This document shows positions 1,898 through 56,951 of a DNA stretch of 64,000 nt, one piece after another (the first letter of the stretch is position 1; every line of letters starts with the position of its first letter). This stretch comes from Escherichia coli (GTDB taxonomy: Bacteria; Pseudomonadota; Gammaproteobacteria; Enterobacterales; Enterobacteriaceae). The stretch is taken from assembly GCF_048403405.1 (NCBI RefSeq), contig NZ_CP183129.1; one strand, given 5' to 3'. Under the pieces are notes generated by a model that worked only from the letters and a program-made list of their open reading frames with translations, was not told the origin of the DNA and did no database searches. Both the position numbers and the translations under genes were made by a program.

Positions 1898-3310
1898 TTA
1901 TTTCCGCAGTTCAGCAGCCCGCTTCTTACCAATAAACAACCAGCCCAGCCCCAGAGCGATAAACCACAGCGGGGTAACCAGCAGCGCCTGGCGGGTATCA
2001 TCTTCCAGTGTCAGCAGCACGACCACGAACACAAAGAATGCCATACATACCCAGCACATCAGCTTGCCGAGCGGCATCTTGTAGATTGATTTCTCATGCA
2101 AGTGCGGACGCTGTTTGCGATACACCAGGTACGAGCAAAGGATAATCGTCCAGACGAACATAAACAGAATCGCGGAAACGGTCGTGATCATCGTGAACGC
2201 ACCAATCACGCTGGGATTCACATACAGCATCACCACGCCGCCGAGCAGGCAGATGCAGGAGAAGGTCAGCCCTTTCGCGGGTACTGCGCGCTTAGAGAGT
2301 TTAGCGAACGCTTTCGGTGCCACACCTTCCTGCGCCAGACCAAACAGCATACGACTGGTAGAGAAGACGCCGCTGTTAGCGGAAGACGCCGCAGAGGTCA
2401 GCACCACAAAGTTGATCACGCTGGCAGCCGCAGGCAAACCTACCAACACAAACAGCTCAACGAACGGGCTTTTCTCCGGGACTACCGAACTCCACGGCGT
2501 CACGGACATAATCACAATCAGCGCGAAGACGTAGAACATAATGATACGGATCGGAATGGAGTTAATCGCGCGTGGCAGTGATTTCTCTGGATCTTTGGTT
2601 TCCGCAGCTGTTGTACCTACCAGCTCAATCCCTACGAAAGCGAAAACCGCTATCTGGAATCCGGCAAAGAAGCCACTTAAACCTTTCGGGAACCAGCCGC
2701 CATCATTCCACAAATGCGCGAATGACGCTTCCACACCGGTCGGTGACTGAAAGTGCATCGCCACCATGACCAGGCCGACGACAATCAGCGACACAATGGC
2801 GACGATTTTGATCATCGCAAACCAGAACTCCATCTCACCGAACATTTTCACGGTGGCGAGGTTGAGCGTCAGCAGCAGCACTATCACCGCCAGCGAGGCG
2901 ACCCAGTCGGAGAGCTCGGGGAACCAGAACTGAGCATAAGCCGTGATCGCCACCACGTCTGCCATACCGGTTACAACCCAGCAGAACCAGTAAGTCCAGC
3001 CGGTGAAATATCCTGCCCACGGCCCGAGTAAATCGGAAGCGAAGTCACTAAAAGATTTGTATTCCAGATTCGAAAGCAGCAATTCCCCCATTGCCCGCAT
3101 CACGAAAAAGAGCATAAAACCGATGATCATATAAACGAAAATGATCGACGGCCCGGCAAGGCTAATCGTTTTGCCGGACCCCATAAACAACCCCGTACCA
3201 ATGGCACCGCCAATGGCAATAAGCTGAATATGTCGGTTTGTGAGATTGCGCCGTAGCGACTGTTCAGCCGGAGCCTGATCATCGGCAACGACTTTTACCT
3301 GATCTACCAT
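1898..3310 (-). CDS. cycA: D-serine/D-alanine/glycine APC-family permease CycA
   Basis: ORF 1898..3310, 470 aa, 12-TM amino-acid permease; recognised as CycA. Confidence 0.93.
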   Translation of the reverse strand: MVDQVKVVADDQAPAEQSLRRNLTNRHIQLIAIGGAIGTGLFMGSGKTISLAGPSIIFVYMIIGFMLFFVMRAMGELLLSNLEYKSFSDFASDLLGPWAGYFTGWTYWFCWVVTGMADVVAITAYAQFWFPELSDWVASLAVIVLLLTLNLATVKMFGEMEFWFAMIKIVAIVSLIVVGLVMVAMHFQSPTGVEASFAHLWNDGGWFPKGLSGFFAGFQIAVFAFVGIELVGTTAAETKDPEKSLPRAINSIPIRIIMFYVFALIVIMSVTPWSSVVPEKSPFVELFVLVGLPAAASVINFVVLTSAASSANSGVFSTSRMLFGLAQEGVAPKAFAKLSKRAVPAKGLTFSCICLLGGVVMLYVNPSVIGAFTMITTVSAILFMFVWTIILCSYLVYRKQRPHLHEKSIYKMPLGKLMCWVCMAFFVFVVVLLTLEDDTRQALLVTPLWFIALGLGWLFIGKKRAAELRK

Positions 3311-3618
3311 GTTTTTTTCTTCCTGTACCTGTCTGTGTTGTTCAGGCTCTACGGCCTTTAGTCAGTCTATGATACGACGAATCTGTATCGGGACTCATCG
3401 ATATTAGGTAACAATACGCGGGATGAATACTAAGATTTAGATCTAATGTTAATTTTATGTTTAAAGTGAGTGTCATATCACGGTGATAACGCGAAACAGC
3501 TCACAAAAATACACGCTTACGCGGTCTTTGCAACACAAAATAGCGCCGTTTGGCAAACTGAAGGGTTTATTGCTGAATGCCTGCTCCCCTCTGGCTCGAG
3601 GGGAACAGAATGCGCTGC

Positions 3619-53284: not shown

Positions 53285-54840
<1,556 letters not shown>

Positions 54841-54928: not shown

Positions 54929-55462
54929 ATGCGCCTGCTCCCTCTCGTTGCCGCAGCGACAGCTGCATTTCTGGTCGTTGCCTGCAGTTCTCCTACGCCG
55001 CCGCGTGGCGTGACCGTAGTGAATAATTTCGACGCTAAACGCTATCTCGGTACCTGGTATGAGATTGCCCGTTTTGATCACCGTTTTGAACGTGGACTGG
55101 AAAAAGTCACCGCAACATACAGCCTGCGGGATGATGGCGGCCTGAATGTCATTAATAAAGGCTATAACCCTGACAGAGAAATGTGGCAGCAGAGTGAAGG
55201 GAAAGCGTACTTTACCGGCGCACCAACTCGCGCTGCGCTGAAAGTGTCATTCTTTGGTCCTTTCTATGGCGGTTATAACGTTATTGCACTCGATCGGGAA
55301 TACCGCCATGCGCTGGTTTGCGGCCCGGACCGCGACTACCTGTGGATACTCTCCCGCACGCCAACCATTTCTGACGAAGTGAAACAGGAGATGCTGGCAG
55401 TCGCGACCCGGGAAGGGTTTGATGTCAGTAAGTTTATTTGGGTACAGCAGCCCGGTAGTTAG
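54929..55462 (+). CDS. blc: Outer-membrane lipocalin lipoprotein Blc
   Basis: ORF 54929..55462, 177 aa; lipobox VVACSSP; lipocalin fold recognised. Confidence 0.9.
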
Positions 55463-55776
55463 TGAGTGCTGAGTTTCAGACCAATAATCCCCAATACGAT
55501 TAACGCCAGACTCGCCAGGCGCATCGGGTTAGCGGACTCGCCGAGCAGCACAATGCCGGTGATGGCCGCGCCGACTGCGCCAATACCCGTCCACACGGCA
55601 TAAGCCGTCCCTACTGGTAACGATTTCATCGCCCAGGCAAGTAGCGCCATACTGACAATCATCGCCGTCACAGTAATAACACTTGGCGTCAAACGACTAA
55701 AGCCGTGGGTATATTTCAGGCCAACGGCCCATACCACTTCCAGCAGACCAGCAATAACTAAGATAATCCAGGACAT
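55459..55776 (-). CDS. sugE: SMR-family guanidinium exporter Gdx (SugE)
   Basis: Track ORF to 55839; ATG at 55776 gives [21 protein letters not shown]..., 105 aa, four TM helices with a conserved Glu in TM1. Confidence 0.9.
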
Positions 55777-55794
55777 ATCAGGCTCCGGAGAATT

Positions 55795-55840
55795 GGGGCC
55801 GTCCCCGGTGAAAAGAGGCGTTTGCAGGTCGTCCTGCAAA
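55795..55840 (-). ncRNA. Guanidine-II (mini-ykkC) riboswitch in the sugE leader: two hairpins with ACGR loops
   Basis: Minus-strand RNA reads UUUGCAGG-ACGA-CCUGCAAA, then a 14-nt linker, then GGGG-ACGG-CCCC, ending about 18 nt before the GGAG Shine-Dalgarno and AUG of sugE. Confidence 0.65.
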
Positions 55841-55907
55841 GCTGATGGTTGAACGGATATTTTGCCAGGTGGCAGGGGAATTTCAACTATTACCTTTGTG
55901 ACTATCG

Positions 55908-55944
55908 CAAAAAAACAAACGGCACGACATAACTGTCGTACCGT
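55908..55944 (-). terminator. Intrinsic terminator downstream of ecnB
   Basis: On the minus strand: ACGGTACGACA-GTTA-TGTCGTGCCGT followed by UUUGUUUUUUUG. Confidence 0.6.
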
Positions 55945-55950
55945 TATTGC

Positions 55951-56097
55951 TTACTGCTGCGCTTTCGTTGCTGCGCCAGAAATCGCGTTACCGCCATCAG
56001 AAATGTCTTCACCAACGCCACGCGTGGTGTTGCAGGCAGTTAATACTGTTGAAAGCACCAGAACAGAAAAGATCGCTGCAATTGTCTTCTTCACCAT
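55951..56097 (-). CDS. ecnB: Entericidin B small lipoprotein (48 aa)
   Basis: Below the 60-aa track cutoff; manual translation from ATG 56097 gives [48 protein letters not shown] with a lipobox, ending at TAA 55951. Confidence 0.75.
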
Positions 56098-56207
56098 AAC
56101 GTCTTCCTTTTAGGTAATGTTATTTATGTTTGCCTATAGCAAATTAATAATAGACAACATCACCAAAAATGATGGAAATCTGATGATTTTTCGGAAGAGA
56201 AGAAAAA

Positions 56208-56333
56208 TTAGCTGGCAGCGCGGGAGATGGAATTACCGAGATGTTTAATGTCTTCACCAAAACCGCGAGCGGTGTTACAGCCCGTGAGCAGCGCACTGGC
56301 AAGCAAAACAAGAACGATAAGGCGTTTCATCAT
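56208..56333 (-). CDS. ecnA: Entericidin A small lipoprotein (41 aa)
   Basis: Manual translation from ATG 56333 gives MMKRLIVLVLLASALLTGCNTARGFGEDIKHLGNSISRAAS, ending at TAA 56208; paralogous to ecnB. Confidence 0.75.
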   Translation of the reverse strand: MMKRLIVLVLLASALLTGCNTARGFGEDIKHLGNSISRAAS

Positions 56334-56384
56334 CTCTAACCTGAATAAGTGATGGTGCAGCCTGCAGGCCGCACCACAACCGCA

Positions 56385-56951
56385 TTACTTCACGCGAGAG
56401 ACGTATTCACCAGAGCGGGTATCCACTTTGATGACTTCGCCGATTTGTACGAACAGCGGAACTTTAACCACAGCGCCAGTAGACAGGGTAGCCGGTTTGC
56501 CGCCAGTACCTGCGGTATCACCTTTCAGGCCCGGATCGGTATCCACGATTTCCAGTTCAACGAAGTTCGGCGGAGTAACGGAGATCGGCTGACCATTCCA
56601 CAGAGTTACGATACACTCTGCCTGATCCAGCAACCATTTAGCGTTGTCGCCAATTGCTTTTGCATCAGCAGACAGTTGCTCGAAAGTTTCGTTGTTCATG
56701 AAGTGCCAGAACTCACCGTCGTTGTACAGGTAAGTCAGGTTCATATCGACAACATCAGCACCTTCAGCGGAATCAGTAGATTTGAAGGTTTTTTCTACGC
56801 GAGTACCGGTCAGCAGACGACGCAGTTTAACGCGAGCAAATGCCTGGCCTTTACCCGGTTTTACGAATTCACTCGCTTCAACCGCGTAAGGTTCGCCGTC
56901 TAACATGATTTTAAGACCAGCACGAAAATCGTTGCTATAGTACGTTGCCAT
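56385..56951 (-). CDS. efp: Translation elongation factor P
   Basis: ORF 56385..56951, 188 aa, [15 protein letters not shown]... with the modified Lys34 in the KPGKGQA loop. Confidence 0.97.

Follow-up and report, generated by a model that had tools for sequence, protein, structure and literature searches.

The efp-sugE interval of an Escherichia coli chromosome carries the entericidin locus ecnAB, tandem paralogous genes for small lipoproteins that appear to be separately controlled

The closest described system is the ecnAB locus of E. coli K-12 (b4410 and b4411), which has the same genes, order and neighbors (epmB, efp, ecnA, ecnB, gdx/sugE, blc, ampC) as the locus described here and differs from it only by allelic changes. 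The function ascribed to the pair derives from Bishop et al. (1998). In the portion of that study relayed by a later paper (PMC7296081), over-production of EcnB raised bacteriolysis and ecnA in cis counteracted the effect. Transcription of ecnB is induced by RpoS, and EcnB, of which cells in growing cultures can contain as many as about 70,000 copies, is among the small proteins most often seen by mass spectrometry in E. coli across many studies (PMC12529367). The ecnB promoter is sigma-38-dependent and poorly recognized by the sigma-70 holoenzyme, and the initially transcribed region contains a -10-like pause signal overlapped by a site for the repressor OmpR (PMC5389655). Repression of the ecnB mRNA by the small RNA MicA has been shown experimentally (PMC3551931). 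Relatives in Pfam PF08085, among them the Salmonella and Klebsiella pairs, Xanthomonas ecnAB and Agrobacterium Atu8019, are small lipoproteins in which the motif CNT-x-RG-x-GEDI is common and which are often encoded in tandem. Phenotypes in biofilm and virulence have been reported for Xanthomonas ecnAB.

The window analyzed here is a stretch of 64,000 nucleotides of E. coli DNA. An ORF listing down to 20 amino acids revealed two small minus-strand ORFs of 41 and 48 amino acids between efp and sugE, with exactly the ends given in the original prediction (Table 1). Beyond the locus lie blc and then ampC, convergent with sugE. The translation of the 41-residue product is MMKRLIVLVLLASALLTGCNTARGFGEDIKHLGNSISRAAS. 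The two products are 56% identical to one another, consistent with the paralogy that had been proposed for them. Searches with curated family models assigned each protein to its own equivalog, both scores being above the curated cut-offs. EcnA scored 112.7 bits (E 5e-33) against NCBIfam NF007319 (entericidin A, cut-off 86 bits) and only 43.3 bits against the EcnB model, while EcnB scored 121.9 bits (E 6e-36) against NF007487 (entericidin B, cut-off 94 bits) and only 46.5 bits against the EcnA model. Both proteins also exceeded the cut-off of 23.3 bits for the entericidin EcnA/B family PF08085, with 26.5 bits for EcnA and 30.2 bits for EcnB. A 551-nt region matches several annotated RefSeq E. 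coli chromosomes at 100% identity, and the RefSeq product names on the identical DNA are "lipoprotein antitoxin entericidin A" and "lipoprotein toxin entericidin B". The names ecnA and ecnB are thus borne out by position, paralogy, lipoboxes, the ecnB terminator and the RefSeq labels. The efp-sugE interval holds the entericidin locus of the E. coli chromosome, with ecnA and ecnB as tandem paralogues.

Table 1. Positions of genes and sequence elements in and around the entericidin locus, numbered along the window. Promoter, pause and operator elements are motif assignments.
Feature	Position	Strand	Description
efp	56385-56951	-	Upstream neighbor of ecnA
Stable hairpin without U-run	56348..56381	-	Directly after the efp stop; occupies most of the 51-nt efp-ecnA gap
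ecnA CDS	56208..56333	-	41-aa prolipoprotein; predicted mature 23-aa lipopeptide, cleavage before Cys19
ecnA lipobox codons L-T-G-C	56277..56288	-	Cys19 predicted lipidated residue, Asn at +2; read from the translation
Candidate sigma-S -10 element C-TATTAT of the ecnB promoter	56147..56153	-	Inferred from motif
-10-like TGCTATAGG	56133..56141	-	Candidate sigma-38 promoter-proximal pause signal; inferred from motif
AAACATAAAT-AACAT direct half-repeats (AAACAT/TAACAT)	56117..56131	-	10 bp apart; candidate OmpR operator
ecnB Shine-Dalgarno AAGGAAG	56103..56109	-	6 nt before the ATG; anti-SD duplex -5.6 kcal/mol
ecnB CDS	55951..56097	-	48-aa prolipoprotein; predicted mature 27-aa lipopeptide, cleavage before Cys22
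Predicted MicA sRNA pairing site	56066..56096	-	From base 2 of the ecnB start codon through codon 11
ecnB lipobox codons L-T-A-C	56032..56043	-	Cys22, Asn at +2; read from the translation
ecnB intrinsic terminator	55908..55945	-	12-bp stem (55945-55918), 4-nt loop, then TGTTTTTTTG (T-run)
Antisense ORF	55862-56113	+	83 aa; spurious
sugE/gdx (SMR transporter gene)	55459-55776	-	Downstream neighbor of ecnB

The genes are absent from the 60-residue ORF track because both are shorter than 60 residues, and a false antisense ORF, the only one of at least 60 residues over the locus, is displayed in their place. The claim that they fall below ORF-caller cutoffs therefore holds for that first-stage track only, since RefSeq annotation names both genes in all of the records listed. 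Both genes have long been known, and the annotation of nearly every E. coli genome already includes them. The short length of both ORFs, the background-level Shine-Dalgarno sequence of ecnA and the greater length of the antisense ORF are what could be cited for the view that the two ORFs are fortuitous and the efp-sugE spacer is non-coding, or that the antisense ORF is the true gene. That view has next to no chance of being correct considering the E values obtained with the curated equivalog models, the detection of EcnB peptides by mass spectrometry and the differences between strains and genera, almost all of which fall at synonymous sites of the minus-strand frames. Substitution pattern and family scores together ruled it out.

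Compared with K-12, ecnA has eight nucleotide differences of which seven are synonymous, and the protein carries a single changed residue, A14 versus T14, located within the signal peptide. Seven of the substitutions within ecnA, six of them synonymous, form a window-specific cluster (56232-56295). Comparisons of ecnA with other E. coli gave Sd of 7-10 and Nd of 1. For ecnA, which has 92.3 non-synonymous and 30.7 synonymous sites, the binomial probability of at most one non-synonymous change among eight is about 4e-4. The ecnB gene differs from that of K-12 by one synonymous change, leaving the protein identical, and differs from the genes of Salmonella and Klebsiella by 22-26 synonymous and 2-4 non-synonymous changes (pN/pS about 0.03-0.05). 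Since the substitutions are almost purely synonymous, both frames are protein-coding and under strong purifying selection. The spacer, the Shine-Dalgarno sequence and the downstream riboswitch are conserved relative to K-12. In the ecnB terminator the stem is unchanged, two bases of the loop are altered and the T-run differs by 1 nt. The copy in the window is an ordinary allele with nothing unusual about it.

The original prediction that each protein contains a lipobox agrees with the translations, in which LTG precedes Cys19 of EcnA and LTA precedes Cys22 of EcnB. In both proteins the signal peptide is of the lipoprotein type characteristic of the family, in that a basic n-region and a hydrophobic core lead up to a lipobox whose last residue is Cys; in EcnA the signal peptide is MMKRLIVLVLLASALLTG, followed by the Cys. 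The score of EcnA against Pfam LPAM_1 was 17.7 bits, below the cut-off of 20, which is unsurprising since LPAM_1 is a model of only 18 positions. Lipoprotein precursors are exported by the Sec system and processed at the lipobox Cys by Lgt, LspA and Lnt. By analogy, the precursors of EcnA and EcnB would be exported and would then acquire lipid at the lipobox Cys and be cut by signal peptidase II. The positions of the two cysteines predict mature lipopeptides of 23 and 27 residues, and the residue at +2, Asn and not Asp, suggests that they would be transferred to the outer membrane by the Lol system. Lipidation of EcnB at C22 is curated in UniProt P0ADB7, as the entry is quoted in PMC12529367. 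The mature peptides share the motif CNT-x-RG-x-GEDI...G...IS..A. The maximum 18-residue helical hydrophobic moment was 0.68 for EcnA, a value as high as this being found in 0 of 2000 shuffles, and 0.49 for EcnB, a value reached by 0.6% of shuffles; it is by computation only that the mature peptides are assigned amphipathic helices. A search of solved structures with the EcnB sequence gave no match.

The two genes are unequally equipped for translation. The claim that each has its own Shine-Dalgarno sequence is correct for ecnB, whereas that of ecnA consists of AGGU only, with an anti-SD duplex of -3.2 kcal/mol that is no better than background. The reference set was the 1972 ATGs of the window, for which the mean was -2.4 kcal/mol with 26% at -3.5 kcal/mol or better. 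The hairpin that follows efp folds with -22.6 kcal/mol (z = -3.05, with 1 of 200 shuffles as good) and is invariant in sequence relative to K-12; no intrinsic terminator was called there by the terminator scan. Since the gap leaves no room for a promoter, ecnA is probably transcribed by read-through from efp. A weak ribosome-binding site together with read-through from efp would probably yield a low-level product.

EcnB is routinely detected by mass spectrometry, which for EcnB answers in the affirmative the question raised in the original prediction of whether either ORF is translated. EcnA was undetected in a proteome that quantified EcnB (PMC3686733), and no mention of it was found in the small-protein mass spectrometry study (PMC12529367) or in a small-protein stress study. 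No direct evidence of the EcnA protein was found in the literature searched. In an acid-stress Ribo-seq table of "previously known sORFs", ecnA has an entry with fold-change statistics that implies countable footprints and falls short of proof of translation. Together with the strong synonymous bias of the ecnA frame, this entry is indirect support for its translation.

The 110-nt spacer between ecnA and ecnB contains promoter-like sigma-S motifs. Just downstream of the candidate ecnB promoter is the sequence TGCTATAGG, which resembles the extended -10 consensus TGcTATA(A/C)T reported to be pause-inducing in ecnB (PMC5389655). A scan of the spacer for sigma-70 promoters found none, a result that fits the published sigma-S promoter since the latter is poorly recognized by sigma-70. 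The direct half-repeats nearest to ecnB are a candidate OmpR site, by their likeness to the ompF and ompC operators. Taken together, the motifs are consistent with the published sigma-38 promoter of ecnB, with exact coordinates that are tentative motif assignments. The 5' region of ecnB was predicted to pair with nucleotides 1-28 of K-12 MicA with an energy of -24.2 kcal/mol (RNAduplex), which none of 500 shuffles equaled and which was matched by 1.3% of 2204 pieces of the same size from the window. The predicted site agrees with the experimental repression of the ecnB mRNA by MicA. The presence of a terminator belonging to ecnB, part of the original prediction, was confirmed by the consensus terminator scan and by folding energy (-20.6 kcal/mol, z = -5.31, with 0 of 200 shuffles as good), and it is the only terminator of the pair. 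From the literature and the sequence combined, ecnB has a sigma-S promoter of its own, repression by OmpR and MicA, a good ribosome-binding site and a terminator, and EcnB attains levels of tens of thousands of copies per cell.

In cells treated with a LolCDE inhibitor, ecnB was up 6.7-fold and ecnA was not induced (PMC5105897). Published results and sequence features alike suggest that ecnA and ecnB are regulated separately. The spacer, the unequal Shine-Dalgarno sequences, the terminator and the published separate control argue against tight coupling of ecnA and ecnB.

These results bear on the description of the pair as toxin and antidote. The literature does report such a description, as had been stated, although it rests essentially on the one 1998 study and is contested (PMC7296081); independent replication of the lysis and neutralization phenotypes on over-expression in E. 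coli was not found in the literature search. In the classical form of this explanation ecnAB is a toxin-antitoxin module in which EcnB is a self-toxin and EcnA the antidote, an imbalance of the two leading to lysis in stationary phase at high osmolarity. This is the model of Bishop et al. (1998) as later papers summarize it, resting on the over-production results outlined above; the RefSeq and EcoGene product names follow it, and it accords with the conserved tandem arrangement of the paralogues. It is at odds with the abundance of EcnB in growing cultures (PMC12529367), with the failure to detect EcnA where EcnB was quantified (PMC3686733) and with the induction of ecnB without ecnA in cells that survive long enough for profiling (PMC5105897). 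The promoter, sRNA control and terminator particular to ecnB also contrast with the coupled, autoregulated operon typical of such modules, there is no demonstration that the antitoxin is labile or the toxin stable, and an ecnA knockout is reported to be available. A classical module is thus considered unlikely, and ecnAB is most likely not an addiction module of that kind.

Another explanation directs the activity outward, with EcnB a lipopeptide of the surface or of vesicles that acts against competitors or in vesicle docking, and EcnA serving in self-protection or modulation. Relatives provide the precedent (PMC7296081): Enterobacter C6-6 secretes a 3-kDa homologue of EcnB with bacteriolytic activity toward Flavobacterium, EcnB-like proteins occur in outer-membrane vesicles of several Gram-negative bacteria, and Agrobacterium Atu8019 is surface-exposed and promotes vesicle docking. 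The Asn at +2 is also compatible with sorting to the outer membrane. Against these findings, no such activity of E. coli EcnB was found in the literature searched, Atu8019 showed no membrane-disruptive activity and docks vesicles without lysis (PMC7296081), and the E. coli locus is chromosomal, near-universal and nearly invariant, unlike typical competition loci, which vary between strains. The outward role is accordingly judged rather improbable. Since the Agrobacterium member shows neither lytic nor pore-forming activity, lysis is perhaps not the native function of the family.

A match to the locus was obtained in all but one (5425) of the 5426 complete E. coli genomes. In the natural isolate UPEC129 both entericidin genes are cleanly lost, an observation that is neutral on the question of antitoxin loss. 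The order efp, ecnA-like gene, ecnB, sugE is kept in Salmonella and Klebsiella records, so that tandem paralogues in the efp to sugE context are found in E. coli, Salmonella and Klebsiella records alike. In Salmonella a gene for a LuxR-type regulator, absent from E. coli, stands between ecnB and sugE. A plasmid search returned two plasmids, one of 452 kb (IncHI2A, Salmonella) and one of 5.3 kb (K. oxytoca), and otherwise very large records of 0.37-5.4 Mb that are probably chromosomes or chromosome-derived; the search gave no support to a plasmid-borne addiction role.

The explanation that best accounts for the results, with a probability of about 0.9, is an entericidin locus encoding exported lipopeptides under separate control, with EcnB lytic only in excess and EcnA blunting that effect. 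According to this explanation, EcnB would be an envelope lipopeptide, amphipathic and abundant, that is induced by stress and bacteriolytic only when over-produced, and co-expressed EcnA would blunt the lysis, plausibly because the two paralogues associate by their helices. A further proposal, in which EcnB is not a self-toxin at all and is instead an abundant sigma-S-induced lipopeptide of the envelope or vesicles (structural, stress-protective or interbacterial) with weak tuning by EcnA, is a serious candidate held at somewhat less than even odds. It is mildly favored by the abundance of EcnB, the availability of the ecnA knockout, the separate regulation and the extreme purifying selection on EcnB. 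If it is correct, the "programmed cell death" ascribed to the locus would be an artefact of over-expression. The biological question posed by ecnA and ecnB is one of function and not of existence, and the toxin-antitoxin label in the annotation is based on thin evidence. The locus matters little to a genome scan, since virtually all E. coli carry this pair and its annotation is of textbook standing. Its value is in calibration, since a 60-residue ORF track misses genuine conserved small genes of which at least one is highly expressed.

Two known systems invite comparison with the entericidins. The first is the type II modules of the mazEF kind, an analogy that was drawn by the original authors, as conveyed by a citing paper. 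The likeness consists of adjacent small genes of which one encodes a product that is harmful when over-produced and the other a product that counteracts it. Unlike the components of mazEF-type modules, EcnA and EcnB are both exported lipoproteins, so far as their sequences predict, and are paralogues of one another. The genes appear to be regulated separately, with sigma-S, OmpR and MicA acting on ecnB only, the "toxin" EcnB is naturally abundant, and a knockout of the "antitoxin" gene ecnA is reported to be available. The second is OsmB, which like EcnB is a small sigma-S-dependent lipoprotein of stationary phase or envelope stress. Both ecnB and osmB have served as sigma-S reporters, and the two rose together on inhibition of LolCDE (PMC5105897). 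Unlike OsmB, the entericidins are encoded by a pair of paralogous genes and have been reported to cause lysis.

A cluster of seven substitutions specific to the lineage of the window was found within 64 nt of ecnA (56232-56295, minus strand), the 41-codon upstream member of the tandem entericidin lipoprotein gene pair ecnA-ecnB. Six of the changes are synonymous and the seventh, A14T, alters the signal peptide. The pS values against other E. coli were 0.23-0.32 for ecnA and 0.03-0.16 for ecnB, and identity of at least 99% to this region of the window was found in 639-641 of 5425 complete genomes (~12%). As a result of the clustered changes ecnA matches its paralogue ecnB exactly over the stretch TTGGTGAAGACATT, for which reason a short gene conversion from ecnB to ecnA, or import by recombination, is a possible origin of the cluster judging from sequence comparison. 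The case is weak, since the clustered changes raise overall identity between ecnA and ecnB from 42 to just 44 of 63 nt. The features identified in and around the locus are listed in the table.

Features in the efp-ecnA-ecnB-sugE region (coordinates of the window)
Feature	Coordinates	Strand	Location or remark
Stable hairpin without U-run	56348-56381	-	Directly 3' of efp stop codon
83-aa ORF antisense to ecnB	55862-56113	+	No other ORF across the locus reaches 60 aa
Promoter-like TTGAAA-16-CAAAAT with TG extension	55886-55859	-	Directly upstream of guanidine-II riboswitch
Guanidine-II riboswitch (mini-ykkC, Rfam RF01068)	55794-55840	-	sugE/gdx leader

The antisense ORF was rejected as spurious since the pattern of substitutions obeys the frame of the minus strand.

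Of 5426 genomes, all but one matched a 501-nt query, and among those 5425 there were 11 in which coverage of the query fell below 80%. Both ecnA and ecnB are cleanly deleted by nature in the clinical isolate UPEC129 (L009, NZ_CP071522.1; 4016-4118), so that efp and sugE lie ~100 nt apart. In strain IAI39 (NC_011750.1) the ecnAB region is matched in two pieces at 4815494-4816821 with an annotated IS1 family transposase beneath, an arrangement that indicates, at the level of sequence, an IS1 insertion in or beside the region.

The hairpin between efp and ecnA has a predicted free energy of -22.6 kcal/mol (z = -3.05) and a sequence unchanged relative to K-12. It may serve as a partial terminator, an attenuator or an mRNA-stabilising structure that tunes read-through from efp into ecnA.

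The leader of sugE/gdx matched RF01068 with 50.4 bits (gathering score 32; E 1.9e-08), and the terminator-like match returned by the consensus scan at 55840-55821 is the first hairpin of this riboswitch. The guanidine-II riboswitch is already known for this guanidinium exporter gene. Downstream, sugE (minus strand, ending at 55459) and blc (plus strand, ending at 55462) are convergent, with 3' ends overlapping by 4 nt (55459-55462). In the mechanical ORF list, ampC is a 442-aa frame extended to a GTG at 53512, against 1134 nt for the annotated gene.

A 5317-bp plasmid record of Klebsiella oxytoca (NZ_CP069925.1) contains an E. coli-type ecnA-ecnB at 643-1144 with 97% identity; possible sources are an amplicon excised from the ampC region, contamination and misassembly. 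The Salmonella record used for comparison (L006) is a 452-kb IncHI2A plasmid with a chromosomal-looking block from yjeJ to frdC. An ampC gene between blc and frdD is present in neither this Salmonella record nor the Klebsiella record of the synteny comparison. In the interval corresponding to 55777-55950 of the window, between ecnB and sugE, the Salmonella record has a gene for a LuxR C-terminal-type regulator (2920-3507), which is missing from E. coli and from that Klebsiella record.
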